Below, in pieces: positions 9,347 to 61,452 of a stretch of DNA of 64,000 nt; position 1 is the first letter of the stretch; every line of letters begins with the position of its first letter. The position numbers were made by a program, and so were the translations under genes. The stretch is from Shigella phage Henu12: the sequence record OQ834936. One strand, given 5' to 3'. Under the pieces are notes generated by a model that saw only the letters and a list, made by a program, of their open reading frames with translations, ran no database searches and was not told the origin of the DNA.

Positions 9347-9732
9347 ACCTCAACTTCAAAACTTACATGTTTTGTGACGTACTCTTCACAATGCTCTTTA
9401 ATAAATTCCTGAAGCAGTTCATCTTCCTGAGCACGAGTCATCAAAGCAACATACTTTGGATTTATTGTTTGCTGAATACTGTAGAAAGACATGTCACCAA
9501 TTTCTGTACCATATGAATCTGACCATGTTCCAGTTACTACTAAGACTTTATCACTCAACTCCGTAGGGAGTTCAATGTCATCATCCTTTGCGTCATCAAT
9601 AACAGAGTCAGTTATTAAAAGAGTACATGCTATGTAAAACTCTGAGTATTTTCTGTGAGTTTTCTCACAAGAGCCACACTCTAAAGCATAGTCTTTAAGC
9701 CAGTTCATTTGATTTTTATTTAATTTAGTCAT
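9340..9732 (-). CDS. hypothetical protein
   Basis: 130 aa acidic ORF. Confidence 0.45.
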   Translation of the reverse strand: MTKLNKNQMNWLKDYALECGSCEKTHRKYSEFYIACTLLITDSVIDDAKDDDIELPTELSDKVLVVTGTWSDSYGTEIGDMSFYSIQQTINPKYVALMTRAQEDELLQEFIKEHCEEYVTKHVSFEVEVC

Positions 9733-9828
9733 TTCTCTTTCCTTTCAATGTGTTGTATAAAAGCCCTAACAAGAAACCTAGTAAGACAGAGCCTACTAAG
9801 GTGACTAACAAGAATGTCTTAATCATCA

Positions 9829-10113
9829 TCAATACCACCATATTGTTTGGTTGTTATCACAAACATACAGGTACTCTGTCCCGATTTGTGGGACGATGAT
9901 TGTAGTGTTGCCTGATATGACTGTCATATAGTATATGTATTCCCTGCTTTGTGATGTTTGCTGACAATTGTTTGCATTCATCCAAATTCTTGTTTGATAA
10001 GTGTCATATATTAGTAACCCTACTAGTATTGCTAATGCAATTCCAAGGAACCATAACCAGAATTTAGGCCAAAAGTCATAACTCATACTGTGACCTCTTG
10101 ATAAACTTTCCAA
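9829..10113 (-). CDS. hypothetical membrane protein
   Basis: 94 aa with hydrophobic segment FWLWFLGIALAILVGLLIY. Confidence 0.4.
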   Translation of the reverse strand: MESLSRGHSMSYDFWPKFWLWFLGIALAILVGLLIYDTYQTRIWMNANNCQQTSQSREYIYYMTVISGNTTIIVPQIGTEYLYVCDNNQTIWWY

Positions 10114-10265
10114 ACATTCTTTGTAAACTCTTCATCGTACCAAACACCGTTAGCAGCTTGCCAAGACACAGTGTATTTGTCTTCAGACACATGCTTGAGA
10201 ACAGCCTCAAAAGTTCGATTAGATTTTCCTGCAACGAAAAGATAGACCTTACCAATTTCCAGCAT
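10083..10265 (-). CDS. hypothetical small protein
   Basis: 60 aa ORF; a competing overlapping frame exists. Confidence 0.3.
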   Translation of the reverse strand: MLEIGKVYLFVAGKSNRTFEAVLKHVSEDKYTVSWQAANGVWYDEEFTKNVWKVYQEVTV

Positions 10266-10329
10266 TGTGGTATCTTCAATAAAAAAGGTGATGCAAGCCT
10301 ATCAAGACCTACACCACCTTGTCAACTAC

Positions 10330-12471
10330 TTACATAGATTTTCTATCCTGAATCTCAGCAATTTTTGCATCGTTCATTCTGGAAGTGCCTTTAATCTTAG
10401 TCCAGCCAAGATAACCACAAACACGGTTAATCACAGAGATATCATGTGAGTTGCACTTAGGACATAATTCAACATCTGCACTTGGACGGTGACCACAATT
10501 TTCACAGATTGCTAAATCAAAGTTAACACCTTGGTAGAAACCTTTACCCATACCTCTTGTCACACAAGCTCTGATAGCTTTATGGTTCTCTGGGTTAGCA
10601 ATACGAACATATTGGATATGACCACCATTACAAGAGTGGAAGAAAGGTTCTTCTAGGTCTTGCTTTTCAAATGGTGTAATATCTGCACCAACATTCATAT
10701 GGAAGCTGTTTGTGAAGTATTCTTTATCAGAAACACCTTTAACAACCCCGAACATATTTCTAAACTGCTTCAATTGCGTACCACAAAGACTCTCAGCAGG
10801 TGTACCATAAAGTGCATACAGGAAGCCGTCTTCCTGCTTAAACTGCTCCAGCTTGCTATTCAGATAGCTTAAAACCTTGCTTGCAATATCACCATCAGAC
10901 TCATGCAATCTTCTACCTTGAGCAAGCACTGTTAATTCATCTAATGCGGTCACACCAAAAGATGCTGTAAAAGACTTAACAGTGTCCCAACCAATCTTAT
11001 CAGTTGGCTTCTTATGACCTTTATACAATCCACCTTGTGTAAATGCTAAAGGGTTAGAACTTGCTGGCATATTAGCAATCATCTCATAACGCTTCTTATG
11101 GAAGCTTCGAATCATTTCAAGGTATTTGTCAAGCTCTTTCCAGAAGTCTAAATCATTCTCTTCAGAGTACTTGTAAATCATCGGCAGATTAAGAGATACT
11201 GCACCAATGTTTGCTCTACCTGTGTAGAACTCTTTACCTTCCTCATCATAGTAAGGAGATAAGAAAGCCCTACAACCCATTGGAGAGATAACTGCACCTG
11301 AACGTTCAAAAGCTTCTGCAACAGAACCATGACCAGACACACTTAAGAAGTCTGGATACATAGCTTTAGAGCAACACTCAATAGCCTTATCATAAAGCTG
11401 CCCCTGCCAAGGGTCTAACATATGTCTTGTTTCATCATAGATATAAACCAGTTTAGGGAACACAACAGGCTTCTTAGATTTACCTTGACCATTCATCCTA
11501 ACATCTAGAATAGTCTTAGCAACCATAAATTGCAAACGGTTATCTTCACTAGCCATGTCTGGTTCAAGTAAACCAAATGTTAATGTTGTGAATGCAAAGT
11601 CACCACGACTGCAAGGAACAGTGTTCAGTTTCATTTCCAAAGATTGGAATCCTTGAGTTAGTTCAATCTGGAGTTGCTCTTTAGCGTAGTGGTATACTTC
11701 CTTGCTTGGAATATTATATTGCTTTGCTTTTTCCAGATGATACTCAAAAGACTTCTTAGCATATGGCACAAGAACCTTGTCAATCTCTGGGATGGTGAAT
11801 CCTCCAAACTGCTGTGCAGTTGCTGAAAGTACAACATCACCGATAACCTGTAAAGCTGAGAGTACAGACTTAGGTTCACAGTACTCAATGCCGGACATTT
11901 CAAAGCCACCTTTCAGGACACTTCCAATGTCAAACAAGCAGCAGTTAATACCCCCGAAGATTAAATCTCTTAAGTCATGGATATAAATAAATCCATCCTC
12001 AATAGCTCTTGTTTCTTCTGGTGTTAAGTGGTACTGCTTAAAGATTTCTTTTGTCAGATACCCACGAATGATTGAACCTTTTGTAGAGATTAAGCTGCTG
12101 TCAAAGTTAGCATTCTCACGGTCACCTAAGAAGAGTGTGTCTTTAGTTTTCTGGTAAAGTTCATCCCAATTCTGTGCAACCTCTTTACGATAGTTTCTGT
12201 AGGTTGAGTATGACTCATAGATTTCATGGTTTACCTCTGCCAGAGTTCCCTCTACAATACTGTGAACATCATCTACAGAGATGAGCATAGCATTCTGATT
12301 AGTTGCTCTGACAAGCAATCTCATAAAGGCTGATTCAAGAGCGTGAATAACTTCTAGTGGTAACTCTTTGTAGCCAACTCTATTAGCTGACTTGGTAACT
12401 GCTTCGACGATTTTATTTACATTTGGTTTTTCCAGTGAACCGTCTTTCTTAATAATTTGTACTTTAACCAT
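10330..12471 (-). CDS. nrdD: anaerobic ribonucleoside-triphosphate reductase (class III)
   Basis: Start set at MVKVQ (GGAG RBS); N-terminal ATP-cone; C-terminal Zn-ribbon cysteines and glycyl-radical motif RVCGYLG. Confidence 0.85.
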   Translation of the reverse strand: MVKVQIIKKDGSLEKPNVNKIVEAVTKSANRVGYKELPLEVIHALESAFMRLLVRATNQNAMLISVDDVHSIVEGTLAEVNHEIYESYSTYRNYRKEVAQNWDELYQKTKDTLFLGDRENANFDSSLISTKGSIIRGYLTKEIFKQYHLTPEETRAIEDGFIYIHDLRDLIFGGINCCLFDIGSVLKGGFEMSGIEYCEPKSVLSALQVIGDVVLSATAQQFGGFTIPEIDKVLVPYAKKSFEYHLEKAKQYNIPSKEVYHYAKEQLQIELTQGFQSLEMKLNTVPCSRGDFAFTTLTFGLLEPDMASEDNRLQFMVAKTILDVRMNGQGKSKKPVVFPKLVYIYDETRHMLDPWQGQLYDKAIECCSKAMYPDFLSVSGHGSVAEAFERSGAVISPMGCRAFLSPYYDEEGKEFYTGRANIGAVSLNLPMIYKYSEENDLDFWKELDKYLEMIRSFHKKRYEMIANMPASSNPLAFTQGGLYKGHKKPTDKIGWDTVKSFTASFGVTALDELTVLAQGRRLHESDGDIASKVLSYLNSKLEQFKQEDGFLYALYGTPAESLCGTQLKQFRNMFGVVKGVSDKEYFTNSFHMNVGADITPFEKQDLEEPFFHSCNGGHIQYVRIANPENHKAIRACVTRGMGKGFYQGVNFDLAICENCGHRPSADVELCPKCNSHDISVINRVCGYLGWTKIKGTSRMNDAKIAEIQDRKSM

Positions 12472-16978: not shown

Positions 16979-17297
16979 GGTATCTATCCAAGTTTCGTTT
17001 CAAGTAAATCCACTGGTCATCTGTGCGCTCTACACCCATGAACAGGGGGGCTACAACAACTTTACCAAAAGTATTTCTGTGCTGGCAAATCTCGTAAGAG
17101 TACGGTTTATCAATATTCAGCCCATACTTATACAACACTGCTGCTAATACTTGTTCATTATCCAGAATCGTTTCTGGCTTCTCTCCGTACTTGTCTAACA
17201 GTGAATCATTCATAAACACTGTCATAGAGAGGTTGTAGTTGGAGAAGTGGCTTTTTGCCACCACTTCTTCACCTTTATTAATGTTCTGTGAATCCAT
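16971..17297 (-). CDS. hypothetical protein
   Basis: 108 aa ORF. Confidence 0.45.
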   Translation of the reverse strand: MDSQNINKGEEVVAKSHFSNYNLSMTVFMNDSLLDKYGEKPETILDNEQVLAAVLYKYGLNIDKPYSYEICQHRNTFGKVVVAPLFMGVERTDDQWIYLKRNLDRYHV

Positions 17298-18033
17298 TAT
17301 AACCGACTCCTTTCAACCACTGCTTGAGGTTGATTGCATCATAATTCAATTTCGGATATGAGGTTACATGGAACTTCTCACCATCATAGTACACAATATC
17401 CGCAAGCCATAATCCATTCTCACGGCAGAAATCTTTATCTGCTTTTGAAGAGATTGGTTCAACTTTAGAAAAGTTTTTAATGCCAAGACTACCAAGACTT
17501 CCAATCAGTCCTTGGCAGATAACGCATGTGTCAGATGTTACCACAAATAATTCTTTTGCGTCAACTTCTGCAATAAAACTTTCAAGTTGAACTTTTGGAA
17601 GATTAGACTGTTTCATAATCTTACCATCAGACTTGCGAATAATTGCAAACCACTCTTTACCTTCAATAATTGATTGACGCAGGTAACATTCATCACCAGT
17701 ACGTTTTTCAATATCAAACATTCGCTGTACAGCTTCTTGATAGTCGTCTGTGTATTTGAGGTTGTTGTTTTCACAAACAGCCTTAATAGCACCATCATGG
17801 TCATGCTGTGTCAGGAAAATTAAACCGTCAAGTACATACTGCAAATCAGCTTGAGCATCAAGGGTCTCAACAGGGTCTTTGGCTTCTACTGCTGCGACTA
17901 ACTCTCTAGCTTCTTCAAGCATACACAGGGATTGACTTTTCAGTGATTCCCAATACTCTGTGCTGTATGGCTCTTTTGGATTATTGCCACAACGTAGATT
18001 CCAATCTCTTACGGATTCTCTGGAATTAAACAT
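17278..18033 (-). CDS. MazG-like nucleoside triphosphate pyrophosphohydrolase domain protein with extra C-terminal domain
   Basis: 251 aa; N-terminal LEEARELVAAVEAKD resembles the all-alpha NTP-PPase EExxE motif; the C-terminal half is unassigned. Confidence 0.45.
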   Translation of the reverse strand: MFNSRESVRDWNLRCGNNPKEPYSTEYWESLKSQSLCMLEEARELVAAVEAKDPVETLDAQADLQYVLDGLIFLTQHDHDGAIKAVCENNNLKYTDDYQEAVQRMFDIEKRTGDECYLRQSIIEGKEWFAIIRKSDGKIMKQSNLPKVQLESFIAEVDAKELFVVTSDTCVICQGLIGSLGSLGIKNFSKVEPISSKADKDFCRENGLWLADIVYYDGEKFHVTSYPKLNYDAINLKQWLKGVGYNGFTEH

Positions 18034-18263
18034 TAAGCCTCCTTATCTTCAAACAACTTTTGTTGAGACTCAATATAGTCCATTCGTTCTTTGAGTTCAA
18101 CACGTTTGCTTAACAGATGTTGAATTTGTGATTCCAGAGCATCCATCTCAGCTTCTGTAGCTGACTTAGCTTTATTGATAGTCTCCTTCAGTGCTGCTAC
18201 GCCGCTCTGGATTTTAGAAACATGGTCATTTTTGATTTTATTAAACATTTTAAACTCTCTCAT
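18033..18263 (-). CDS. hypothetical coiled-coil protein
   Basis: 76 aa, heptad-like charged pattern. Confidence 0.4.
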   Translation of the reverse strand: MREFKMFNKIKNDHVSKIQSGVAALKETINKAKSATEAEMDALESQIQHLLSKRVELKERMDYIESQQKLFEDKEA

Positions 18264-18750
18264 TAAGTTTCATGATTTTAGTGATTCTCTTCTCAGCTTC
18301 ATCATAAGTCTCTTTTGTAAGAAACTTGATTGCTGCAATGTTTGCATTGTAGAAGAGTCGAAGCTTAGAGTCAATCCTTTTTGTCATGACGTCAAACTTA
18401 TGTTGTAGGTTAGCTTCGCCGTAAACTAAGCCACCTCGCGTATAGTAAGTCTGGATAATGTAGAAGTCAAATTCTTTTTCACCAAATGCTTCAATATCTT
18501 TCTTGATGTACTCAGAAGAAGTTTGGTAGACCATCCAATCACTTTCTTTTGTCACTACTTTACGTCTGGTCTTTCCAGCAACCTTCTTCTTAGTGATACT
18601 GTTAAACTGCTTTTTACCCAAATAATATTGACCAGTCTTTTTACAGTATACTAAGTAGACAAATCCGAAGTACTTAGCGGGGTCAATCTCCCCGCATAGT
18701 GAAATCCAGTGACCATAAGTAGGGCAATTGCCAAAACCTTTAATCTTCAT
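18250..18750 (-). CDS. GIY-YIG domain nuclease (seg/EndoII-like)
   Basis: 166 aa; GFVYLVYCKKTGQYYLGKK fits the GIY-(x9-11)-YIG pattern. Confidence 0.45.
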   Translation of the reverse strand: MKIKGFGNCPTYGHWISLCGEIDPAKYFGFVYLVYCKKTGQYYLGKKQFNSITKKKVAGKTRRKVVTKESDWMVYQTSSEYIKKDIEAFGEKEFDFYIIQTYYTRGGLVYGEANLQHKFDVMTKRIDSKLRLFYNANIAAIKFLTKETYDEAEKRITKIMKLNERV

Positions 18751-19247
18751 TCATAAGTTTCTCCGTGATTTGCAAACTCTCTGTGGAGTTCTTCTCTTTT
18801 CTTTCTAATTGCTTCTTTGGCATCATCAACGTTATCAAACAGACCAAGGAAATGTGTTACACCGTGAACCATAATCCTTGCTCTCCACTTCTGTGAAGCT
18901 TTGTTGAATGATACACCTTTTACACCAGATGTATTGTTGGAGTGTATTTTTCTATTCCAACAATTTTCAGCTTGAGTGCAAACTCTCAAGTTCATTCTTC
19001 GGTTGTCATCAGTAATTCCGTTACGATGGTCTACACGGTCTGGTAAGAACCCCTCTGTGTAAAGAATGGCTAAATCATGAGCCATGTATGATTTTCTCTT
19101 TATGGTAATCCTGATATAACCCCTTTTATGGGGTGTTCCAGCAACTGAACCAATGACTGTCCTATTAGCCGATTTCTTCAACCAAGTAAAGACCCCTGTT
19201 TCGGGGTCATAGTGTAGATATTCTTTAAGAATCTGCCGAGTTAACAT
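18747..19247 (-). CDS. HNH homing endonuclease with AP2 DNA-binding domain
   Basis: HNH motif VDHRNGITDDNRRMNLRVCTQAENCWN and AP2-like GVSFNKASQKWRARI; paralogous to 28826-29341; the ORF could start as far upstream as 19283. Confidence 0.75.
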   Translation of the reverse strand: MLTRQILKEYLHYDPETGVFTWLKKSANRTVIGSVAGTPHKRGYIRITIKRKSYMAHDLAILYTEGFLPDRVDHRNGITDDNRRMNLRVCTQAENCWNRKIHSNNTSGVKGVSFNKASQKWRARIMVHGVTHFLGLFDNVDDAKEAIRKKREELHREFANHGETYE

Positions 19248-20298
19248 TTGGTGTCCACCCATACTTATCAAAAGTGAAATCATCTTTCTTATTTCTTTCC
19301 TGATAAGCTAAGAAAAAGTGTTGCTGCATTAACTCTAAAGGTGTTCTGGTAATTGTCTGACCATCCCATGAAACATAAGTGTAAGAGTCTTTCTTAGCAT
19401 ACAGTTCATAAATTGCATCAAGACATTCTTTGTAAGTAGTTTTACCTTCAAGAGCTTTCATTACTGCAACTTTACCAGCACCCTTTAAACCGAAGTAGTT
19501 ATCTGCGTTATCACCAGCTACGGCTTGGTAGCAGAGGAATTTAAATCCTACTCCAACTGTCTTCTTAGCTTTTGGTGTAGATTTTATTGGGCAATCCCAA
19601 ATTTCACCAACGTTATTATCAGCGATAAAAATCAATGGGGCTTTCTCATAAGTCATATCAATGCAGTAAGTACCTTCAGCTTGTCGAAGGTCTTTGTCAA
19701 TACTCATGAGGGCAGCTTTTTTACCCATCTTTTCAGCTTTTGCAATAACGATAGAGTCAGCTTCAAACCCATCAAGAATCAGCTTAAACTCTGGTCGTGA
19801 CAGAAGATACTCACGACAAGCAACTAGGTGTGTAGGTGTTACAGCTTCTTTTCTGTTACCTTGGTATTGGTGTTCAAGACCTTTGATATCCTTGTGTTTG
19901 TGAACACCTTTCTCAGTAAGGTAACCCATCCATTTGCGTTCTTTACCAACGACTTTCAACCACTCCTGAAGAACTTGCTGTGTAGCCATAATTGCTTCAG
20001 CTTCACTTTTAGCTTCTTTCCAAGTCTGTCTTTCCCATTCATCTTCATCAAAGTCAAGTCCTAACTCTTCAGTTAAAACTCTTTGGTCAGACAACCATTG
20101 TGCTGCCAGTTTTGCACTATCAAAAGCATCGGATTCTTCAGCAGTGATTTTATTCACATACTTGTACTTTGCTTTTTCAACTACACAAGCACCTTTGTAA
20201 GCAATGCTATCAGAGTCAATAAAGACGTGTGTAACGCTCTCTGGGAGCTTTGTTAAGGTGTATTGTTCCATTGTACTCTCCATACGAAAAAGCCCCAT
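19225..20298 (-). CDS. 5'-3' exonuclease (FEN/RNase H family)
   Basis: 357 aa; VFIDSDSIAYKG (cf. Pol I 5' nuclease LILVDGSSYLYRA), GFEADSIV acidic cluster, GLKGAGKVAVMKAL helix-hairpin-helix-like segment. Confidence 0.55.
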   Translation of the reverse strand: MGLFRMESTMEQYTLTKLPESVTHVFIDSDSIAYKGACVVEKAKYKYVNKITAEESDAFDSAKLAAQWLSDQRVLTEELGLDFDEDEWERQTWKEAKSEAEAIMATQQVLQEWLKVVGKERKWMGYLTEKGVHKHKDIKGLEHQYQGNRKEAVTPTHLVACREYLLSRPEFKLILDGFEADSIVIAKAEKMGKKAALMSIDKDLRQAEGTYCIDMTYEKAPLIFIADNNVGEIWDCPIKSTPKAKKTVGVGFKFLCYQAVAGDNADNYFGLKGAGKVAVMKALEGKTTYKECLDAIYELYAKKDSYTYVSWDGQTITRTPLELMQQHFFLAYQERNKKDDFTFDKYGWTPNVNSADS

Positions 20299-20333
20299 AC
20301 GTCTGTACAGGGCTTTGTAGTAGTTACTGACTA

Positions 20334-21194
20334 TTACTCGTCGTCAGTTTCGAAATCATCTTCGTCGTCATCATCTGGGTTTGGCAGGTCGTCGTCATCG
20401 TCATCACCACCTTTACCTTCATCACCAGAATCTTTTGCATCTTCTTCAGTGATTTCACCGTTGTCTTCAACACCTGCAAGACCAAGCATTGCCAGTTCAT
20501 CTTCATCCAGTTCAGTCTCAGTAGCACCACCAGTACCACCAGTGTAAGGAACCAGAGTATCAATGATAAATTGTTCCTGAATTGGCTTGGTCAGAACGTT
20601 ACCTTCAAATGTGTAGAAGTGAGTCGCCAGAATCACACTACCAAATGAACCGTTACCAACTGCAATATCTGGATGAATTACATCGTAAGTCTTATCATCA
20701 TCGTGCTTATCAGATTTTGCTGCCTTGATTTTCTTCATAGGCTGCTTAACTGCAACACGCTTACCGTTGATTTCTTCAACCAGCATTACAGGGAAACTCT
20801 GTTTTGCTGACCACACAGCACCGTCTTTATATGCTGCTGAACGGCTAACCTTCAGGATGTGATAGGTGTCAGCTTCAAACGGAGGCTCACAACCAAACTT
20901 CTCTTCGAAGTCATCTGCATCAACAGCCTCTGTAGTAACTTTATCCCAACCTTCAGGACTCTTTTTAGACTTGGTGAACTCTTTAAAGAGCTTGTTACCA
21001 TCTTTTGCCAGAATTGAAACGCTGTAGTTACAATCTTTGCCCGGAAAATGCTTATCCACAGATTTACCCTTTTGAGGACGTGGAATAGTGTTCAGGTAAT
21101 AGAACCAAACATCTTTCAGCAGGTAACGAAGAGTCTCACGTTCTTGACCATTGTACTTCTCTACCGGAGCTTTCATTTTAACAACTTTAGACAT
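20334..21194 (-). CDS. putative ssDNA-binding protein with acidic C-terminal tail (T7 gp2.5-like)
   Basis: 286 aa ending GDDDDDDLPNPDDDDEDDFETDDE; sits in the replication block; assignment is by analogy. Confidence 0.4.
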   Translation of the reverse strand: MSKVVKMKAPVEKYNGQERETLRYLLKDVWFYYLNTIPRPQKGKSVDKHFPGKDCNYSVSILAKDGNKLFKEFTKSKKSPEGWDKVTTEAVDADDFEEKFGCEPPFEADTYHILKVSRSAAYKDGAVWSAKQSFPVMLVEEINGKRVAVKQPMKKIKAAKSDKHDDDKTYDVIHPDIAVGNGSFGSVILATHFYTFEGNVLTKPIQEQFIIDTLVPYTGGTGGATETELDEDELAMLGLAGVEDNGEITEEDAKDSGDEGKGGDDDDDDLPNPDDDDEDDFETDDE

Positions 21195-21245
21195 TTTAAT
21201 ACCTCTTTCTCAAATTAACTTTCAACTCAACTATCAAGGAGTACA

Positions 21246-21274
21246 ATCTTACAGACTTCGTACTCCCTTGTCAA
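21246..21274 (-). promoter_or_regulatory. sigma70-like promoter upstream of the SSB-like gene
   Basis: Minus strand TTGACA, 17 nt spacer, TAAGAT, then AAGAGG RBS and the ATG at 21194. Confidence 0.45.
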
Positions 21275-21279
21275 ACACT

Positions 21280-21417
21280 TTAAGCAGATTTCTTAGCTGC
21301 TTTACGAGCCGTCTTACCTGTACGAACTCGCTTCTGTACATAGTGTTCAGCAGATTTACCAGCAGTTGCTTTCATGGAATCGCCAAATACTTTCTCGAAT
21401 GCTTTAGAATGTTTCAT
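21280..21417 (-). CDS. small basic protein (45 aa, below ORF-track cutoff)
   Basis: ATG overlaps the stop of the upstream ORF in an ATGA arrangement; translation MKHSKAFEKVFGDSMKATAGKSAEHYVQKRVRTGKTARKAAKKSA. Confidence 0.3.
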   Translation of the reverse strand: MKHSKAFEKVFGDSMKATAGKSAEHYVQKRVRTGKTARKAAKKSA

Positions 21418-21695
21418 GAATCTCTCCGATATATTTCATATTCAAAATGTTTATTAGTCAAGGTAAAGGTGTAAACTGTAGATAACCCATCAATCGCTAA
21501 TGCAAATTGCTCAACATTATCTTTTGATAAGTGTTCAAACTTTACTTCATGTCCCTTGTTGATGAGTACTTTACCGAACTGCTCTATCTTAGTCAAGCAC
21601 TCTTTTACAAATTTTTCTCTGCTTTTTTCTGAATAGAAGGGTTCAAAACCCTCCTTCAGATAACTATCAATCAGTTTCGAACGGACAGTCATCAT
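21414..21695 (-). CDS. hypothetical protein
   Basis: 93 aa ORF downstream of the primase-helicase. Confidence 0.45.
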   Translation of the reverse strand: MMTVRSKLIDSYLKEGFEPFYSEKSREKFVKECLTKIEQFGKVLINKGHEVKFEHLSKDNVEQFALAIDGLSTVYTFTLTNKHFEYEIYRRDS

Positions 21696-23658
21696 TATCC
21701 TCGTTAATCACAGGTGGAATGGTGGAACTTTCACGTTGTTCTTGTGTGTAAATCTCTCCAGATTCACGGTCAAAATCAACATCTTCATAGTGTGGCATAG
21801 AGTCATCGTAATGGTCTTCAGCCTCACCAATACCAAACTGCTGACGAATATTCTCTGCTGCACCATCAATATCAACACCACATCCAGCAGCCTTTACAAG
21901 ACGACCTGTATCTGGATTATACCAAGTGTGACCAGCAATACCAGTTGACTTACCATGACGGCGACATTTTGTTAGCTTGATTTTTGTCAAGTTCTTTTTA
22001 ACAGGGTCTGGGTCAACCTTGTTACGCATAAGCAAAATGTTGTTCATGGAAATCTGGAAGTATGCACCAGAACCCTTGATATCTTCTTCAGAAATATCAC
22101 CACCTTCAGAGTTGGCCTTTTGACCACCTGCACTCTTACGAACGTGACATACGTTTACCTGAGCATACTGATAACGCTTACAGCGACGAAGTAACTCAGA
22201 CAGAACTTCTTCTTCATCTGTATCAGAGCGTGACAGTGCCAATGTAATAGGGTCAAGGATGATAATCTTACAATCGAGACTGTTAACCAGATAGTCAACA
22301 AACTCCAGCAGGTTATCTTGGTCAATTGCCCCTTGGTGGTCTACGATGTGAATACGACGACCTTTTGACAACTCAGCATGTGCAACCTTAATCTCATCCC
22401 AATTACGCTCATCGTAAGGAATCTCTGAAATCTGCTTACTAAGATGGATTGCACAGAGCATTTCCATAAGTTCTTCGTAAGTATCTTCTACAGGAATTAC
22501 ACCGATGTTGTACTCAGTATCTTTCCATGCTTTGTAAATCATCTCACGAGTATATGCAGATTTACCTACAGATGAAGGTGCAGCAAGGGTTGTAATCTCA
22601 CCTAAACCATACCCGCCATAAGTCAGCTTATTCAAATCCCCGAAAGAATCTGGGAAAGGAATTAAAGGAATCTGACCACGATTCTTCATAGCATCGAAAC
22701 CATCTGCAAAGTTCTTGATACCAGCAGGGCAGTAACGAGGTGCATTGTAGATTCGTTGTTTAAATCCTTCTAAGACTGTATCTTTGTCTTTGAAGAACTT
22801 AGTCCACCACTCACTAAGGTCTTTAATACCTTCAGGATACTGGAATAGTCTTACTTTCTCAATAGGTAAGATACCAGCAGCTTCCTTAGTTGCTTTAGCC
22901 CCTGCTTCATCATTATCAAAGCATAGGTAAATCTCATCAAAGGAAGTAATATACTGATAGTTCTCTTTGATAGACTTAACATTAGCACCAGATGGTACAG
23001 AAACGTGGCAGTAATTCTTACGTCTAGACTTATCTTTAATTGCTAAAGAAGTCATGTAGATTGCTGTAGCACATTCCATCTCACCTTCCCAGATGAAAAG
23101 ACGGTTACCACCTTCTGGAGCAATCCATGAACCGAACATAGCCAGTTCACCTTTAATATCTCCGACACCACCAGAAAAGTCTTTCAACTTCCCACGTAAG
23201 TGCTCTTTGTGATAGTCATCTGGATATTTGTGACGAACACGATAACCTACATGTTGCAACTTACCATCTTCATCCTTTTTGTATGTTGGATAGAAATGTG
23301 CATCAATATCACCGTTATCATCAATATCAACTTTAATACCGAGACGCTCAAGGACTTTTGCAGGAATCTTCCTATCTTTTAAATCCATTGCTTCTAGGTT
23401 TTCTTTCACATCATCCAAATCCATACCACGAAATGTACGGTTTTTATTCTCTGAACCTGAAGTATGAGTACTCACAATCTGCCCTTTATCAAAATCCCAC
23501 TCTGGAAAACCTTTTCCACAACTGAAACATGTCATTGAATATGAACCGTCATCATGACGATATATAGAACCTGCATCTGAAGATAAACATTGAGGGCGTG
23601 GACATGCACAGTGGCCTACAAATGTTCCAGCATCTTTCAGTTTTCTCTGTTTAGCCAT
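21667..23658 (-). CDS. bifunctional DNA primase-helicase (T7 gp4-like)
   Basis: 663 aa; N-terminal Cys4 zinc ribbon; TOPRIM-type DNDEAG; Walker A AAPSSVGKSAYT in a DnaB-like C-terminal half. Confidence 0.85.
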   Translation of the reverse strand: MAKQRKLKDAGTFVGHCACPRPQCLSSDAGSIYRHDDGSYSMTCFSCGKGFPEWDFDKGQIVSTHTSGSENKNRTFRGMDLDDVKENLEAMDLKDRKIPAKVLERLGIKVDIDDNGDIDAHFYPTYKKDEDGKLQHVGYRVRHKYPDDYHKEHLRGKLKDFSGGVGDIKGELAMFGSWIAPEGGNRLFIWEGEMECATAIYMTSLAIKDKSRRKNYCHVSVPSGANVKSIKENYQYITSFDEIYLCFDNDEAGAKATKEAAGILPIEKVRLFQYPEGIKDLSEWWTKFFKDKDTVLEGFKQRIYNAPRYCPAGIKNFADGFDAMKNRGQIPLIPFPDSFGDLNKLTYGGYGLGEITTLAAPSSVGKSAYTREMIYKAWKDTEYNIGVIPVEDTYEELMEMLCAIHLSKQISEIPYDERNWDEIKVAHAELSKGRRIHIVDHQGAIDQDNLLEFVDYLVNSLDCKIIILDPITLALSRSDTDEEEVLSELLRRCKRYQYAQVNVCHVRKSAGGQKANSEGGDISEEDIKGSGAYFQISMNNILLMRNKVDPDPVKKNLTKIKLTKCRRHGKSTGIAGHTWYNPDTGRLVKAAGCGVDIDGAAENIRQQFGIGEAEDHYDDSMPHYEDVDFDRESGEIYTQEQRESSTIPPVINEDNDDCPFETD

Positions 23659-23851
23659 TCACACCTCTTCGTTGTAGTTCTGCCTTAAGACCGTTTTCAA
23701 TCTTATCAAGCTCATGGATTTCTTCTGCAATCTCTTTCCTTCTTGAAGCGACCCTTTCAAGTCGCTCCATCATAACTTCTTTGGAAAGAGATGAGAGTTC
23801 CACTGTACGGTGGTCAATTACTTTAAAGTTATTATCTCTCATCTTCAACAC
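23651..23851 (-). CDS. hypothetical protein
   Basis: 66 aa charged/coiled-coil ORF. Confidence 0.4.
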   Translation of the reverse strand: MLKMRDNNFKVIDHRTVELSSLSKEVMMERLERVASRRKEIAEEIHELDKIENGLKAELQRRGVNG

Positions 23852-23854
23852 CTT

Positions 23855-24595
23855 TTATAGATTGATAATGGTTTTAAGTTTACTCTCTAACTCTTCCATC
23901 GTTCCGTTATTCTGGATAATATCACGGGAGAAGTTAGTGGAGATACCTTTTTCAGAACTGTGTGACGCAACCTGAATAGCATTGTTTCTGGTCACCTCAA
24001 TTATCTGACTATCATAACTCTGAAGAAACTCTGCTTCAAGGTCAAATCGTAAATCACATATTAGAGCAATACCTATATGAGACTTGTTATGACATTCTCC
24101 AAAGAATGATTCCATTCTCTCAGCAAGGTCTCTTATCCAGAACTTCTCACCTAACACTTTACGGACAACTTCACTACCCCATATCTGCTGGATTTGGCGT
24201 GATGAGAATATGTACTCTTCTTTTAAACCGAGCCTTGTTTTGAAAGTCGGTTTAGCCACCTTCTTAATTTCAGTGATAAGTTTATCTGCAATTTCACCAC
24301 ACAATTTATCATCACTGTGGATACCTTTGTCTTTCATAATTTTGTAGAAAGCCCACTTAACTTTTTGTAATACTTCTGAGAATGTCAAGTCAAACTTTTT
24401 AGGAGTTTCCTTTGTTGCCCCATACAGGTCTTGCCAATCCAAATCAAAGATGAATCCAGCAGTTGCTTTTAAGTTGTCTGCAAACGCAAAAACTTTAACA
24501 GTATAGCCAGAGTCAATCAAGAGGTTTTTCACAAGTGTGCATGATGTATCTTTTCCAGAGCGAGCCTTTCCAGTGAATGCAATTACTGATTTCAT
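23855..24595 (-). CDS. deoxynucleoside monophosphate kinase-like protein
   Basis: 246 aa; P-loop FTGKARSGKDT resembles T4 gp1 dNMP kinase (GVKRSGKDT). Confidence 0.55.
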   Translation of the reverse strand: MKSVIAFTGKARSGKDTSCTLVKNLLIDSGYTVKVFAFADNLKATAGFIFDLDWQDLYGATKETPKKFDLTFSEVLQKVKWAFYKIMKDKGIHSDDKLCGEIADKLITEIKKVAKPTFKTRLGLKEEYIFSSRQIQQIWGSEVVRKVLGEKFWIRDLAERMESFFGECHNKSHIGIALICDLRFDLEAEFLQSYDSQIIEVTRNNAIQVASHSSEKGISTNFSRDIIQNNGTMEELESKLKTIINL

Positions 24596-24609
24596 TGTGT
24601 ATCTCCATA

Positions 24610-24645
24610 ATAAAAAGCCCCCAATTAAGGAGGCTTAAAAGTTAA
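24610..24645 (-). terminator. putative intrinsic terminator
   Basis: GCCUCC/GGGGGC imperfect hairpin followed by T-run on the minus strand. Confidence 0.4.
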
Positions 24646-24651
24646 TAACTG

Positions 24652-25446
24652 TTACTGCAAGCGAGCACCAGACAGTTCACGTTCAGCCATGCTGTCTAAC
24701 TGTTCAACAAACTCATCACCAAAGTTGATTGCCAGCTTAGTACTCAGTACTGCTGCACCAGTTTGCGTGAAGACTTCGTTAAGTGCTTTTGAGTGAGCAC
24801 CTTGAGAGATTTCTTCAACAAACGCAGGGTCTGCTTCAAGCATCTTAGAAACCTCTAAGAGAGCATGGATACCCATAATGCTGAAGATTGCATTGAGCAT
24901 TGAAGTTAATTGAACCTGAACAGGATTCATTTCAATATCTTCACTAATCTCAACAAGACGCTTCATAGTCTCTTCAGTGAGAGTCAGAACTCGTTCAGAG
25001 ATTTCTTCAAAGCCCCAATCCAGTTTTGCATAACGTGGAGCTTGGTCACTCATACGTTTTTCAAGTGAAGCCATTACAGATGCAACAGATGCACAGATAC
25101 ACTTCATGATTTCTGCATCAGACATGTTATCAAGTTCTTTGATACCAGCTTCAGTCATCTGGATATAACCACCAGAATACATCTCTGCAAATACGTATGC
25201 AGCAAAGGCATCAACACCAATTGCAATGGTTTTCAAAGCAACTGTCTGGTTACTCAGAAGATATTCAACCTCTTTACGGAAATCTTCGTCATTCTCTACA
25301 GCGTTTTTTACAACACGCAGAGATTCAGGGATAAATTTTCCTGACAGTGAGTTGCTACGCATAATGATAGCAAGAGTCTCAACAGTGTTCAGCATGAATG
25401 CTTCGTCAATACCTTTTTCTTCCAGAATCTCATTTACAGTTTTCAT
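24652..25446 (-). CDS. hypothetical protein
   Basis: 264 aa acidic ORF. Confidence 0.5.
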   Translation of the reverse strand: MKTVNEILEEKGIDEAFMLNTVETLAIIMRSNSLSGKFIPESLRVVKNAVENDEDFRKEVEYLLSNQTVALKTIAIGVDAFAAYVFAEMYSGGYIQMTEAGIKELDNMSDAEIMKCICASVASVMASLEKRMSDQAPRYAKLDWGFEEISERVLTLTEETMKRLVEISEDIEMNPVQVQLTSMLNAIFSIMGIHALLEVSKMLEADPAFVEEISQGAHSKALNEVFTQTGAAVLSTKLAINFGDEFVEQLDSMAERELSGARLQ

Positions 25447-25870
25447 CTTTAATCTCTCTCATTTTGTTAATAGTAAGTCGTGATAATCTTAAGCTTTCTT
25501 GTGAAGAGAAGTCAAGTCCTTTTTCAGACCGTGGGAAGTAATTTCTGTCCCACGTATTCTCTGCATCCTGAAGCAGTTGGGATAGACTATCTAAGTCCGT
25601 TCCATTTTGCAACTTATTTTTTAAGGTATCTATCAAAAAGATTGTGTCTTTCGCTTTACGTCTTTCTGAAGATATCTCTTTCATGTGCTCAAATACAGAA
25701 CACTTTAAACCTTCGTCGTATCCACTTGATAGTTCTATCTCATGCTGAACATCAACCATTCGACGATGTTGATAAGCATACTCCTTCTGAGCCTCGATGT
25801 AAAGTGCTTCAACTCTTTCTAAAGCTTGGACAAGGTTATTGATATCTGGGTGAACGTACATCCTCTGCAT
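25430..25870 (-). CDS. hypothetical protein
   Basis: 146 aa ORF; first gene of the minus-strand block at the divergent region. Confidence 0.5.
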   Translation of the reverse strand: MQRMYVHPDINNLVQALERVEALYIEAQKEYAYQHRRMVDVQHEIELSSGYDEGLKCSVFEHMKEISSERRKAKDTIFLIDTLKNKLQNGTDLDSLSQLLQDAENTWDRNYFPRSEKGLDFSSQESLRLSRLTINKMREIKDENCK

Positions 25871-26129
25871 GATTGCCTCTGTTAAGTATCTATAAAGATT
25901 TTAATCTCTTATCTTTATGTATGTTATACATATAACTTTAAAGCTTTTTAAAAGCTATTAAAAATCTTTTAAGACTTTTAAAGAAACTGTATAGTTAATC
26001 TATAAAGGGAGTCTATTAAGATAAAACCCACTTCGAAAAGACTAACACCTTGTCAAGTAGTTTGTCAACTTGCTTTTTGCAGAAAATTGCTGTAGGGTAT
26101 TATCCAGAATGATTTGAGAGGGAGTAAAA
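25871..26129. promoter_or_regulatory. divergent AT-rich intergenic control region
   Basis: 260 bp between divergently transcribed blocks; repeated TATAAAG and CTTTTAAAG-like motifs and tandem TTGTCAA repeats at 26050-26069. Confidence 0.45.
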
Positions 26130-28829
26130 ATGGACAATGTAGATTTCGAAAAATTACATTTGGTTGGTGATACAGAAACTGATGGGTTGCTCCTTGAGTT
26201 TACAAAAGCACACGTAATGGCTTTCGCAGACTATAAAGATGACAGTGATGAACCTGCTGTGTGGGTTTTCACTGATGAGCCTATTCTTGGTCACAAGTAT
26301 ACAAAATACATCAAAGGTGGTCTGCGTGAAGGTGTTGAGTTTGCACTGAAAGCTAAACGTCTTTGTATCCACAATGGTCTTGGTTATGACTGGTGGGTGT
26401 TTAATCACATTGCACCTGACCTGTGGAACTTTGAGAATCCTAAGTGTAAGCCTTGGAGTGACTTCTTTCAGGATTCACTTATCCAATCTCGCGTACAGTG
26501 GATGGATAGACCTACACCAAAAGGTTACAAAGGTGCTCATGGTTTGGCTGCATGGGGTGCTCGTGTTGGTGTTCGTAAACCAGAGATTGAAGAGTGGGGT
26601 GTATGGAATGCAGAGATTCTTACTCGTGTTGTAGAAGATATTAAGATTAACGCCAAAACTAAACGTGCTCTTGATAATGAGTACCTTAAGCTTAAGAAGT
26701 GTGGTGTTGACACTTATGAAACCTATATGCGAGCTAAAGAAACATCTTTCTGGATGAGCCAGCAAGCTATCAACGGTTGGAAAGCTGATGTAGAACTTAT
26801 GCAGTTCCATGTTAAAGAACTTGACAAGTTAACTAATGAGTTAGCTGCTGAGGTTGAGCCACACCTGCCACCAACTATCAAGACAAAAGGTAAGGTCACA
26901 GGTGAAGAGTTTGCTAAGTCTTGGAATGAGTATGTGGATACATTTGGTCACGTTGACGGCTTAAAAAGGATTACCAAGTACCCTAAGACAAAGTATCGTG
27001 AACAGATGCGTGAAGGTGAGTTGAAGCAATACCCTATCAAGCCATATGGAAAGCCAACTACAAAGATTTTTAACGTTGAGAAACGTAACTGCTACACACC
27101 AACTAATACGGTTACCAAAGAAGAGTACCCTGAAGGTTTCGTAGCAATGAAAGATGCTCGTGCAGTTTGTAATGAACTGAATGAGAAGATTGGGAAGAAG
27201 TGTAAAGATTGGAAACCAGTTAAGACTGTGAAGATTGTGAAGTACTATAATGTGCATGTTGTAAATCACTTCGAGTTGGAGTCAAGTCGCTACACTGGTT
27301 TGATTGATGCACCATTCACACCAATTGAGTTTGAAGTTTCACGAATGACTCAGGTAGCTGTGGTGAAGGATTACTTAAAATCTGTTGGTTGGATTCCTGA
27401 TGATTGGAACTACAAAAAAGATTCTGATGGTCGTCCGGTTAAGGTTTGCAGATTCAAAGACAACAAAAAGATGATTCGCAAACATCCTAAGTGGGATGAG
27501 ATGGTTGAGCGTTGTGGGTTGAACTATATTGAGCATGAAGGTGTCTATTACATCGAGCATAACTGGTCTGTTAAGAAGTACACAGATGTGCTTGAGCCTT
27601 GCTTGATTAGGACTTCACCAAAGCTTACAGAGTCTTCTTATGATACAATCGAAGGTGAGCTTGGACAGAAGATTGCGAAGTACTATACTTTGATGCACCG
27701 ACGCAGGACTATTGAGAACTCAAAGGATGATGAGAAAGGTTGGCTGAACCAGATTCGTCCAGATGGTCGTTTGAGTGCAGGTGCAATGGTGTTTGGTACT
27801 TCTACTGGACGTATGACTCAGTATGGTATTGTAAACGTACCTTCTGGTGCTGCTGTTTACGGTGAGCCAATGAGGGCAGTGTGGATTTGTGAAGAGGGAA
27901 CCAACGTAGTATCTGTTGATATGAACTCTGCACAGCTTGTACTACTCTGTAACTTCATGGGTGATAAAGACTTCACCAAAGCGGTAACAGAGGGTAAAGA
28001 AGAGATTGAGTTTGTTCGTCAAGAGGATGGAAGATACTACTGCAAACACTTTGACCAGTATCTGAATCCAGAGATTGACAAGTATCTGCGTTATGACTCT
28101 GAAAACGATTTGTACGTAGTTTACTCAGGGACTGATGCTCACACTCTGAACAGTATCTACTTCAGCCTTAATGATGAGCAAGATATCTTGACTTGTCGTG
28201 CTACTCAGGATGAGAATCTTCTTCATGAGATTAGCAAGGGACGTAAGAAAGCTAAGAATGGTATCTATGCCCTGTTGTTCGGTGCAGGTGATGAGAAGTT
28301 TGCTAAAACAATTAAAGCAGCAACTACTCAGGAAGGTGCATTGACTAAGCAGACTTACTTTGTGCGCTTGCCGAAGATTAAGAAACTGTTAGACAACTTG
28401 GAAGCTGATTTCAAAGCAACTAAGAAAGCACTTGAAGAGGTGTTTGGTAAAACTGCTGCGATAGCTAAAGGTGGTTTTGTGAAGGTTGCTGGAGCTTGGC
28501 TGTGGTGTAAGTCTCCACACAAGCTGTTAAATTACCTTTTGATGGGTTCAGAAAGTCAAGTCCAGAATGAAGCAATTAACCTTGCATGTCGTCGTATGAT
28601 TGATGAAGGTTTGATGAAGTTGAATGGTCGTAAACCAGCTATTGGCGCTCGCTTACTCTGTGCTTACCACGACGAAACAAGTTGGGAATGTCCAGAGCAC
28701 ATGACAGCAGATGTGAAAGCAGTAACTGACTGGTATTATGGTCAAGCATCTAAGAACCTTGGACTAAGGAAAGAAACCTTGGTAACAGGTACTGGTAAAG
28801 TTGGTAAGAGCTGGTATGAGGTACATTGA
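26130..28829 (+). CDS. DNA polymerase, family A, with 3'-5' exonuclease domain
   Basis: 899 aa; Exo I motif DTETDG near the N-terminus; motif C YHDE; terminal His characteristic of Pol I-type enzymes. Confidence 0.9.
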   Translation: MDNVDFEKLHLVGDTETDGLLLEFTKAHVMAFADYKDDSDEPAVWVFTDEPILGHKYTKYIKGGLREGVEFALKAKRLCIHNGLGYDWWVFNHIAPDLWNFENPKCKPWSDFFQDSLIQSRVQWMDRPTPKGYKGAHGLAAWGARVGVRKPEIEEWGVWNAEILTRVVEDIKINAKTKRALDNEYLKLKKCGVDTYETYMRAKETSFWMSQQAINGWKADVELMQFHVKELDKLTNELAAEVEPHLPPTIKTKGKVTGEEFAKSWNEYVDTFGHVDGLKRITKYPKTKYREQMREGELKQYPIKPYGKPTTKIFNVEKRNCYTPTNTVTKEEYPEGFVAMKDARAVCNELNEKIGKKCKDWKPVKTVKIVKYYNVHVVNHFELESSRYTGLIDAPFTPIEFEVSRMTQVAVVKDYLKSVGWIPDDWNYKKDSDGRPVKVCRFKDNKKMIRKHPKWDEMVERCGLNYIEHEGVYYIEHNWSVKKYTDVLEPCLIRTSPKLTESSYDTIEGELGQKIAKYYTLMHRRRTIENSKDDEKGWLNQIRPDGRLSAGAMVFGTSTGRMTQYGIVNVPSGAAVYGEPMRAVWICEEGTNVVSVDMNSAQLVLLCNFMGDKDFTKAVTEGKEEIEFVRQEDGRYYCKHFDQYLNPEIDKYLRYDSENDLYVVYSGTDAHTLNSIYFSLNDEQDILTCRATQDENLLHEISKGRKKAKNGIYALLFGAGDEKFAKTIKAATTQEGALTKQTYFVRLPKIKKLLDNLEADFKATKKALEEVFGKTAAIAKGGFVKVAGAWLWCKSPHKLLNYLLMGSESQVQNEAINLACRRMIDEGLMKLNGRKPAIGARLLCAYHDETSWECPEHMTADVKAVTDWYYGQASKNLGLRKETLVTGTGKVGKSWYEVH

Positions 28830-29341
28830 TGCGAGATTGTGGATTCACACATGAACAGTTAAAGTCTTGGTTAAACTATGACCCCGAAACAGGGGTCTTA
28901 ACGTGGATTGGCAGGCCTCCACATAGTAGTAGGGTGGTTATTGGGAGCCAAGCCGGAGCAATCAAGCGCACAAGGTCTGGTGTGTATATGCACACACAGA
29001 TTTTAGGATACAGGACAGGCAATCACCGAATTGCTTGGTTCTGGATGACAGGCAAGTGGCCTGATAAACACATTGACCACAAAGATGGAGATGGTTTGAA
29101 TAACGCTTGGGACAATCTCAGGGAGGCCACAAAAGAACAGAACATGTCTAATAGGAGACAACCCAGAACATCAAAAAACTTAAAAGGTACAAGTAGAAGC
29201 AAGTCTGGTAAGTGGATAGCCCAGATTAACCATAATGGCAAGACTATACATATAGGTACATACACAACAGAAGAAGAAGCCCATAAAGCTTACTGTGAAG
29301 CTGCTATTAAACTCCACGGAGAGTTTGCAAAACTAAGTTGA
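28826..29341 (+). CDS. HNH homing endonuclease with AP2 domain
   Basis: 171 aa; HNH motif IDHKDGDGLNNAWDNLREATKEQNMSN and AP2-like segment; shares YDPETGV(L/F)TW with 18747-19247; start overlaps the polymerase stop. Confidence 0.75.
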   Translation: MMRDCGFTHEQLKSWLNYDPETGVLTWIGRPPHSSRVVIGSQAGAIKRTRSGVYMHTQILGYRTGNHRIAWFWMTGKWPDKHIDHKDGDGLNNAWDNLREATKEQNMSNRRQPRTSKNLKGTSRSKSGKWIAQINHNGKTIHIGTYTTEEEAHKAYCEAAIKLHGEFAKLS

Positions 29342-29392
29342 CAAGGTGCTCATGGAAGAGTACCTTATACTATATCTTGTATAGGAGGTTAC

Positions 29393-29611
29393 ATGACACT
29401 TTCAGACGTTATCCAACAACTTCAGGTAAGTGGTTACACTCAAGAGCAAATTGATGAGCTAAACATCATATCCATGCCAAACCGTTTTGTTAAAGCTTTT
29501 GGGTTAGAAGTTGTAAGGATGGCACATATACTCATTGTGGATGGTCTTCTTATCAAAGACAGAACTGGTGCTTTGAAAGGTAAGAGAATCGATATCACGG
29601 AGATATTATGA
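29393..29611 (+). CDS. hypothetical protein
   Basis: 72 aa ORF with AGGAGG RBS. Confidence 0.45.
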   Translation: MTLSDVIQQLQVSGYTQEQIDELNIISMPNRFVKAFGLEVVRMAHILIVDGLLIKDRTGALKGKRIDITEIL

Positions 29612-29817
29612 GTCACCGTGGTAGAACTCATCTTGCCATGATGCAAGGGGCTTCAAAAGAGACTATCAAGAATCGTAAGAAAACTCTTTTTGACAGAATG
29701 AATAGACTCATTGACAATGCAAGTCTACCTAACTCTGAAAAGGTTTTCTTGAAAGGGAATCTGAAGAGTATTGCACAGGAACTTATTGACATTGAATTTT
29801 GGAGACACCAAAAATGA
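29608..29817 (+). CDS. hypothetical protein
   Basis: 69 aa basic ORF, translationally coupled to neighbours. Confidence 0.45.
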   Translation: MSHRGRTHLAMMQGASKETIKNRKKTLFDRMNRLIDNASLPNSEKVFLKGNLKSIAQELIDIEFWRHQK

Positions 29818-61359: not shown

Positions 61360-61377
61360 TATGCACCTATAAAGTTG

Positions 61378-61452
61378 GTAGCCCATCGGGATTTGAACCC
61401 TGTTCTCATGTTTTTCAGACACGCGCTTTAACCATATAAGCTAATTGAGCTA
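61378..61452 (-). tRNA. tRNA-like element, possibly tRNA-Phe (anticodon GAA), noncanonical
   Basis: T-loop TTCAAAT and acceptor pairing present, but the T-stem has only 3 clean pairs and the acceptor/D junction is irregular. Confidence 0.4.

Follow-up and report, generated by a model that had tools for sequence, protein, structure and literature searches.

A general model for free-standing homing endonucleases has been laid out in earlier work (PMC2988022, PMC2790892, PMC10448857). Within that literature, free-standing genes of the HNN-AP2 type have been described in several phage groups (PMC2248197, PMC10448857), and nuclease genes have been found at the boundaries of genetic exchange (PMC10448857). 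For Felix O1-like phages, the published counts of HNH genes are 5–6 in Felix O1, two in Moogle, and one in Mordin (PMC3185647, PMC4319497, PMC4611695). Here, we analyze a 64,000-nt stretch of the genome of Shigella phage Henu12 (OQ834936), referred to below as the window, in which four nuclease genes had been noticed: a GIY-YIG gene, two HNH-AP2 genes that we call HNH1 and HNH2, and an HNH gene that runs off the right edge (the edge HNH). Our comparisons make it likely that the three HNH genes are free-standing homing endonuclease genes, two of them HNH(HNN)-AP2 paralogs and the third a zinc-finger HNH, and that the GIY-YIG gene lies outside this mobile set.

HNH cassettes at three gene boundaries

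Searching with window positions 17,000 to 21,000, we obtained matches in 258 phage records, the top one being Shigella phage Henu11 at 99.6%. Other near relatives are the Shigella phages Sf13–Sf19 and the Citrobacter phages Moogle, Mijalis, Michonne, and Mordin (92–96%). These matches place the phage in the Ounavirinae, genus Mooglevirus, as a Felix O1-like myovirus whose relatives have genomes of 87–90 kb. A first impression of a T5-like phage, raised by the many tRNAs and a flap nuclease, was ruled out by the 92–99.6% match to Ounavirinae/Mooglevirus. The region holding the nuclease genes is the replication and nucleotide-metabolism module, in which the minus-strand genes run in the order primase/helicase, exonuclease, HNH1, GIY-YIG, a 76-codon open reading frame (ORF), MazG-like, and NrdA, and the plus-strand genes in the order DNA polymerase, HNH2, small ORFs, and ligase. 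All four nuclease ORFs of an earlier note, which was made from the sequence alone, are present where it had placed them, as judged by Pfam, PHROG, and ORF evidence. It had also put GIY-YIG and HNH1 between the MazG-like gene and the exonuclease; this order stands, except that the 76-codon ORF (18033–18263) also separates the MazG-like gene from GIY-YIG. A phmmer census of all six-frame ORFs of the window revealed no extra members of the three nuclease families, and an NCBIfam search gave no matches for any of the four nucleases.

The phage Mordin proved the most useful reference, being colinear with the whole window at 93–95% identity. In the window, insertions of at least 400 bp relative to Mordin are limited to HNH1, a tail-fibre segment, and HNH2, the last of these along with a substituted stretch immediately 3′ of it. 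The final block aligned between the two phages ends shortly before the edge HNH. Each HNH cassette is a precise insertion of 490–515 bp at a gene boundary for which close relatives carry insert-free alleles. The comparison with insert-free relatives that the earlier note had proposed for the polymerase and exonuclease junctions thus located empty alleles at all three HNH sites.

HNH1 (18747–19247, minus strand) encodes a protein of 166 residues that matches Pfam HNH_3 (E 5.9e-8) and PHROG 99, HNH endonuclease (E 1.8e-72), and that aligns with I-HmuI (1U3E) at E 0.009 over the DH..N..N catalytic core. The gene shares bases with both of its neighbors, at its start with the 3′ end of the exonuclease gene and at its stop with the beginning of the GIY-YIG gene; we call this junction site 1. 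A longer alternative HNH1 ORF begins at 19283, but this start sits in exonuclease sequence that is also found in insert-free alleles, which makes initiation at the ATG at 19247 more likely. The exonuclease gene itself (19225–20298, minus strand) belongs to PHROG 107, exonuclease (E 5.8e-65), and bears a weak similarity to the Pol I 5′-3′ exonuclease domain, with weak matches to the NCBIfam Pol I and 5′-3′ exonuclease models.

In Sf13, Mordin, and Bas63, site 1 is empty, and the exonuclease gene directly adjoins the GIY-YIG gene. Breakpoints from blastn and MAFFT alignments, together with the Bas63 annotation, define the HNH1 insertion as a 496-bp segment (18765–19260), in place of which the empty alleles have about 5 bp. 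The insertion alters the exonuclease C terminus, which reads ..WTPNVNSADS* in the window versus ..WEPVMNED* in the empty allele. Using a 300-bp empty-junction query that matched 262 records, we found in a spread sample of 59 that about 39 are contiguous and about 20 carry an insert of about 490 bp.

The occupied site 1 is itself polymorphic, with at least three divergent HNH alleles: the window/Moogle type, the Henu11 type, and the Sf14 type. These share 55–58% mutual amino-acid identity and have only the first ≈70 nt and last ≈60 nt in common. Across positions 17,000 to 21,000, Henu11 is 100% identical to the window save for the HNH1 core (52–58%) and, within GIY-YIG, a single 100-nt bin at 88%. 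The relationship with Moogle is the reverse: the HNH1 core is 100% identical, the bins beside the insert are 81–92%, and those farther out are 83–100%. The window phage is base-for-base Henu11 over kilobases yet carries Moogle's HNH1 allele, a natural allele replacement between near-isogenic phages. Sf13 and Sf14, mostly 97–100% identical to the window, drop to 67–94% across the site 1 flanks. In an identity profile of 100-nt bins, the resulting divergence tract spans 18400–19799, reaching about 350 bp into the GIY-YIG side and about 600 bp into the exonuclease side. Such a tract is the footprint expected from co-conversion, although it would not prove that mechanism. The earlier note had suggested that the endonuclease genes mark recombination hot spots; at this site, the profiles reveal a mosaic made by local recombination, in which three alleles replace one another between diverged flanks. 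HNH1 has a ratio of nonsynonymous to synonymous substitution rates (dN/dS) of 0.06–0.08, compared with 0.04–0.05 for the exonuclease gene, values that indicate purifying selection on HNH1.

HNH2 (28829–29341, plus strand; ORF 28826/28829) matches Pfam HNH_3 (E 1.3e-14) and AP2 (E 1.9e-9), both passing the cut-off, and its protein is assigned, like that of HNH1, to PHROG 99. The two proteins are paralogs with 36% identity (phmmer E 2e-21). Their alignment bore out the shared YDPETGV(F/L)TW stretch and HNH core that had been pointed out before, comprising a DH..N..NLR..N core and an AP2-like C-terminal half in both. Residues D73, H74, N82, N86, and N98 are invariant in seven aligned HNH-AP2 alleles, and the catalytic core is intact by this measure. 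Likewise as described previously, HNH2 overlaps the stop codon of the DNA polymerase gene: its ATG at 28829 overlaps the polymerase TGA in the form TGATG.

The polymerase gene (26130–28829, plus strand) is of family A (Pfam DNA_pol_A) and is intron-free in this phage. At its 3′ end, site 2, the empty allele of Mordin consists of the polymerase TAA, 5 nt, and then a conserved element starting TTGACA. In the window, HNH2 occupies the gap between the polymerase stop and this TTGACA, with the HNH2 TGA lying inside it. The element, TTGACA-N22-TATACT (29338–29373, plus strand), directly 3′ of HNH2, has one copy in the window and is present in occupied and insert-free alleles alike. Given its 22-nt spacer and the lack of a promoter-scan call, we do not class it as a sigma-70 promoter and refer to it as a conserved intergenic element.

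Occupancy at site 2 is about 60%, with about 25 of 60 sampled records empty and about 35 occupied, and Sf13 carries a different HNH-AP2 allele there. Compared with the window, the Felixounavirus EC106, an Escherichia phage, is 95–99% identical over HNH2 and 80–90% over the polymerase gene. Identity changes some 20 nt upstream of the polymerase stop codon, such that the final ≈20 nt of this gene move together with HNH2, and the comparison shows that the cassette was transferred recently from one genus to another.

The EC106 polymerase gene carries a group I intron with no ORF (Rfam RF00028, 62.9 bits, E 1.5e-13; record positions 2962–3237, equivalent to about 28270/28275 in the window). In many Felixounavirus records, including Felix O1, the polymerase is annotated as two coding sequences, some with an internal endonuclease gene; the 2010 Felix O1 paper reported no introns. 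We considered collaborative homing of HNH2 with an EC106-type polymerase intron and rejected it: the sampled records include intron plus downstream HNH, HNH without intron, and neither. The window, where HNH2 is present without a polymerase intron, is of the second kind, and no dependence of HNH2 on the intron is evident in these records. A second variable spot adjoins the HNH2 site in the Mordin comparison (28816–29606). Just 3′ of HNH2, Mordin, Henu11, and EC106 have unrelated sequence in place of 29393–29611, which holds a 72-codon ORF, and the window differs from Henu11 at 29447–29784.

Site 3 lies in the tRNA array, which contains 18 tRNA genes at 60.4–63.7 kb. The edge HNH (63722–64000, minus strand) comprises the last 92 codons of a gene for a zinc-finger HNH endonuclease and corresponds to the C-terminal 92 residues of a 161-residue protein; here, the window is 100% identical to Henu11 gp64. 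It matches PHROG 2255 (E 2.8e-34) and displays the motifs CxxC...HH...N...CxxCH. The last 7 nt of the gene, whose ORF ends ATG CTG TGA, are the first 7 nt of tRNA-Ile (63653–63728, minus strand; identified by ARAGORN, Rfam, and the junction sequence), in agreement with the earlier description of a gene overlapping tRNA-Ile and running off the right edge; Henu11 has the full gene. Site 3 is empty in phage skuden and in Mordin, where only 2–3 nt separate tRNA-Met from tRNA-Ile. In Henu11, this spacer holds a 490-bp HNH insert, and so it does in the window up to the right edge. Felix O1 carries this gene in the same place as ORF44, with 88% identity overall. Only 11 of 273 related records reach this part of the query.

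The tRNA array also encodes, between tRNA-Ser and tRNA-Phe, a protein of 265 residues (60625–61422, minus strand) carrying a full-length DUF7217 domain (E 6.7e-84), which is kept in Mordin (Mordin_85) and Henu11 (gp65).

The GIY-YIG gene, a conserved neighbor of the exonuclease

The GIY-YIG gene (18250–18750, minus strand) encodes 166 residues, of which residues 22–138 make up a Pfam SegE_GIY-YIG domain (E 1.7e-26). The protein has the features of the GIY-YIG superfamily, namely, the GIY...YIG motifs, a conserved Glu and Asn, and an alpha/beta fold, and the residues Y32, Y43, G45, K47, E112, and N135 are kept in 15 homologs. A structure model contains the nuclease fold followed by short C-terminal helices, with the I-TevI catalytic domain as its best fold match. 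In neither the Pfam search nor the structure model did we recognize a DNA-binding module beyond the nuclease domain. Orthology with T4 endonuclease II (DenA) was also considered, and the protein has no detectable sequence similarity or close structural similarity to it.

The distribution of this gene contrasts sharply with that of the HNH genes. By tblastn, 766 records contain the gene, each genome having one copy, and in about 296 of them the identity is 60% or higher, which is at least as many records as match its flanks. In 260 of the 262 records matched by the junction query, the 5′ end of GIY-YIG adjoins the 3′ end of the exonuclease gene, and no allele lacking GIY-YIG was seen among these 262. 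The gene is kept in Mordin, in which all three HNH sites are empty, and is also present in Bas63. Its divergence follows that of the neighboring genes, and its dN/dS of 0.06, similar to that of the exonuclease gene, indicates strong purifying selection. More distantly, T4-like cyanophages possess homologs with ≈33% identity, again one per genome; in phage Bellamy, the gene directly follows nrdA-nrdB.

The earlier note had counted this gene among the mobile elements and had named presence in all relatives at the same position, with no empty alleles, as the pattern that would argue otherwise; for GIY-YIG, this is the pattern that we observe. From the single copy, the 260 of 262 junctions, the retention in HNH-free Mordin, the dN/dS, and the lack of a recognizable DNA-binding module, we therefore conclude that the gene is not mobile and that it is an Ounavirinae core gene: a conserved, vertically inherited, selected nuclease, made up of the nuclease domain only, of the nucleotide-metabolism and replication operon. 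As a guess at its role, it might degrade or process DNA in support of replication or nucleotide supply.

Annotation of this gene has been inconsistent. Its orthologs (Mordin_28, bas63_0057, and RefSeq entries) are labeled variously as "NAD synthetase," "HNH homing endonuclease," "GIY-YIG homing endonuclease," and "hypothetical protein." The "NAD synthetase" label appears in RefSeq and PHROG 447 and extends to cyanophages. Both the "NAD synthetase" and the "homing endonuclease" labels are unsupported, and the single HNH homing endonuclease published for Mordin (PMC4611695) is in fact the GIY-YIG gene.

We also asked whether the gene corresponds to the Bas63 "gp77 GIY-YIG" that counters retron Ec67 (PMC11482910). 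This identification was ruled out: the Bas63 ortholog proved to be bas63_0057, a gene distinct from bas63_0077. According to the PhageMaP preprint, bas63_0077 is the Ec67 retron counter and has a GIY-YIG domain (PMC11482910). A 171-codon ORF of the window (7408–7923, minus strand) is 77% identical to bas63_0077. It contains no Pfam domain and, by eye, an HNH-like stretch (GHHKPVTKGGEHHCSNW...N).

Homing and its alternatives

The earlier note had viewed the nucleases as selfish free-standing endonucleases abutting essential genes. For the three HNH genes, this view is sustained by empty alleles at each site and, for two of them, by cassettes whose identity far exceeds that of their flanks; it does not extend to GIY-YIG. 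Our comparisons show presence or absence at identical positions, cassette transfer, allele exchange with altered flanks at site 1, an intact catalytic core, and purifying selection. By analogy with I-HmuI and the T4 Seg and Mob enzymes, during co-infection the HNH nuclease would nick or cut an insert-free or rival-allele genome near the insertion point, and recombinational repair from the HNH-carrying genome would copy the cassette along with a few hundred bases of flank. No promoter for the HNH cassettes is evident in the junction sequences or in consensus scans, which are uninformative here. Because of this and because the ends of essential genes overlap with the cassettes, expression probably relies on read-through and translational coupling.

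Several points weigh against this interpretation. The AP2 match of HNH1 is weak, at 19.3 bits against a Pfam cut-off of 33.3, although this part of the protein aligns column for column with HNH2 and with better-scoring alleles. For the edge HNH, of which only the 3′ part is inside the window, the Pfam HNH match is not significant (E 0.052), and its 88% overall identity to Felix O1 does not reveal a step between cassette and flank. The occupancy figures derive from evenly spread samples of about 260 records and are sampled rows and not full counts. Finally, ordinary homologous recombination between co-infecting phages could also give presence/absence patterns and mosaics without homing.

The last point bears on the alternative that fares best, in which the HNH genes are useful accessory genes, serving competitor exclusion, anti-defence, or DNA processing in the manner of the HK97 terminase-associated HNH, and spread by ordinary recombination. 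Purifying selection on HNH1 would fit such a role, and domesticated nucleases that resemble homing endonucleases have been documented in work whose authors state that sequence by itself does not allow homing to be inferred (PMC10448857). In addition, SegB is reported to help in immune evasion (PMC13096335). Useful accessory genes, however, do not readily account for insertions that are precise, confined to single genes, and placed at gene boundaries, with identity steps exactly at the cassette edges, nor for rival alleles at one site and the many relatives, including Mordin, that have none of these HNH genes. These features follow the classical homing pattern, and we consider the accessory-gene explanation unlikely.

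We give less credence still to the proposal that all four nucleases are selfish homing endonuclease genes and that GIY-YIG is one that swept to fixation. The proposal draws on the relationship of its domain to the SegE type of T4 homing endonucleases, on the fold match to I-TevI, and on the "GIY-YIG homing endonuclease" label in many GenBank records. A fixed homing gene is hard to reconcile with the absence of an empty allele among the 262 records, the single copy per genome, a divergence that tracks the neighbors, and the single-copy homologs beside nrdA-nrdB in cyanomyoviruses, and the proposal appears largely refuted by the distribution of GIY-YIG. Lastly, it is very improbable that old insertions have been decaying and have left HNH ORFs whose enzymes are no longer active. 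In favor of decay are the below-threshold AP2 match of HNH1, the degeneration of HNN-AP2 genes described in Xanthomonas phages (PMC2248197), and the annotation of Moogle's HNH1 copy as a shorter ORF. Against it, the ORFs retain their full length, all seven alleles keep the catalytic D, H, and N, dN/dS is 0.06–0.08, and near-identical cassettes in distant lineages imply recent spread. Homing by the three HNH genes remains the interpretation that we favor.

Hairpin patch, other variable loci, and related systems

A short nucleotide patch is common to the two HNH-AP2 genes. In HNH1, the sequence GACCCC-gaaaca-GGGGTC (19191–19208, minus strand) encodes D-P-E-T-G-V, and an identical patch is located within HNH2 (28880–28897, plus strand); the window contains exactly these two copies. 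The patch takes the form of an 18-nt hairpin, GACCCC-N6-GGGGTC, with a 6-bp stem. We compared 11 Ounavirinae HNH-AP2 alleles from both sites, with 36–84% amino-acid identity to HNH1, and found that the Y-D-P-(E/D)-T-G-V codons TAT GAC CCC GA(A/T) ACA GGG GTC are invariant in all of them. At other columns that are invariant in amino acid, synonymous codons vary freely. In pairs of site 1 and site 2 alleles, the patch codons are identical at 6–7 of 6–7 positions, compared with about 40% elsewhere (Fisher p 0.002–0.008). The conserved codons are rare ones: in six long genes of the window, CCC accounts for 1% of Pro, GGG for 9% of Gly, and GTC for 7% of Val codons. In distant homologs with the same peptide motif, mostly other codons are used, and the hairpin is not formed. 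Among 2.9 million viral contigs, the exact 21-mer is confined to 19 stretches, which lie without exception on contigs of 51–94 kb, most of them as large as Ounavirinae genomes.

The 5′ boundary of the site 1 allele swaps falls within about a dozen bases of the patch. As an intrinsic terminator, the patch was flagged in HNH1 only, with a poor T tract, and we rejected this role; its local folding z-scores are unremarkable. Tentatively, the 18–21-nt patch may be a functional nucleic-acid element and not a relic of shared ancestry, either anchoring recombination that swaps the specificity-determining nuclease core between alleles and paralogs or regulating the element's expression as a protein-binding site or an RNA hairpin, a possibility that we rate below even. 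If so, and with GIY-YIG as a core nuclease, the exonuclease/GIY-YIG junction would be a dedicated docking site for interchangeable nuclease cassettes.

Several other loci vary among these phages. At 37627–38292, the window has 666 nt where Mordin has 497 unrelated nt, by position within the tail-fibre gene (Mordin_58), a replacement that probably reflects host-range variation. Mordin in turn is longer by 928 nt at about 7140, where it has two hypothetical genes of 450 nt each (Mordin_7 and Mordin_8), and by 188 nt at about 4300. In Bas63, nrdD (8631–11517) is a joined coding sequence split by an HNH_3/NUMOD1 endonuclease gene, bas63_0068, a further candidate for a mobile insertion among these phages; the Mordin nrdD annotation is uninterrupted. 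Immediately downstream of the terminator region of the exonuclease operon, the window encodes a protein of 286 residues (20334–21194, minus strand) with an Asp/Glu-rich, strongly acidic C-terminal tail, kept in relatives as a hypothetical protein. The low complexity of this tail is the reason that BLAST matches with Henu11 are split.

The HNH genes of the window are annotated as HNH homing endonucleases in the Moogle, Sf14, Michonne, and Felix O1 records, and the variable HNH content of Felix O1-like phages is already published; the finding is real but ordinary. Our additions are confined to the correction regarding GIY-YIG and to the hairpin patch, and the significance beyond good annotation is small. 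In practical terms, the GIY-YIG gene should not be tallied as a mobile element. The three HNH sites account for most differences in gene content among near-identical therapeutic and typing phages, and they mark where mosaics arise. Site 1, with an empty state and three rival alleles, provides together with the hairpin patch a tidy system for HNH-AP2 competition and modular exchange.

Among described systems, HNH1 and HNH2 resemble the phage HNN-AP2 genes of Xp10/OP1/Xop411, T5, and RB16/RB43, and the IPA-HNH of ICP1, with which they share a two-domain architecture of HNH_3 and AP2. The likeness extends to the conserved boxes H-R-L/I-A-W, WP, DH, DN, NLR, and EN/QN (PMC2248197) and to the presence of several dispersed copies per genome that vary among relatives (PMC2248197, PMC10448857). 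Whereas the Xanthomonas HNN-AP2 study described apparently random locations, the Ounavirinae have fixed sites common to genera, with empty alleles and several alleles per site. The Ounavirinae HNH-AP2 genes also carry the invariant 18-nt hairpin patch, unlike their distant homologs.

Like SegA–G and MobA–E of T4, the HNH genes are single genes between conserved genes, sporadic in relatives, and bordered by flanks of the kind that co-conversion would leave (PMC2988022, PMC2790892). The closest known systems to the GIY-YIG gene are the I-TevI catalytic domain and other GIY-YIG nucleases (T4 endonuclease II, UvrC, and SLX1). T4 SegB is located in the tRNA gene region, and the edge HNH similarly lies within a tRNA array; SegB, however, belongs to the GIY-YIG family, whereas the tRNA-cluster element here is a zinc-finger HNH. 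I-HmuI and I-HmuII, intron-encoded HNH nicking enzymes in the polymerase genes of Bacillus phages SPO1 and SP82, offer a further comparison for the HNH-AP2 pair, I-HmuI being the closest relative with a solved core and the association with polymerase genes being held in common. The Ounavirinae genes differ in being free-standing and not intron-encoded and in having an AP2-like C-terminal DNA-binding part. Goodrich-Blair and Shub reportedly found in 1996 that the rival I-HmuI and I-HmuII alleles displace each other, dragging flanking markers along, and such displacement would parallel the three alleles at site 1.

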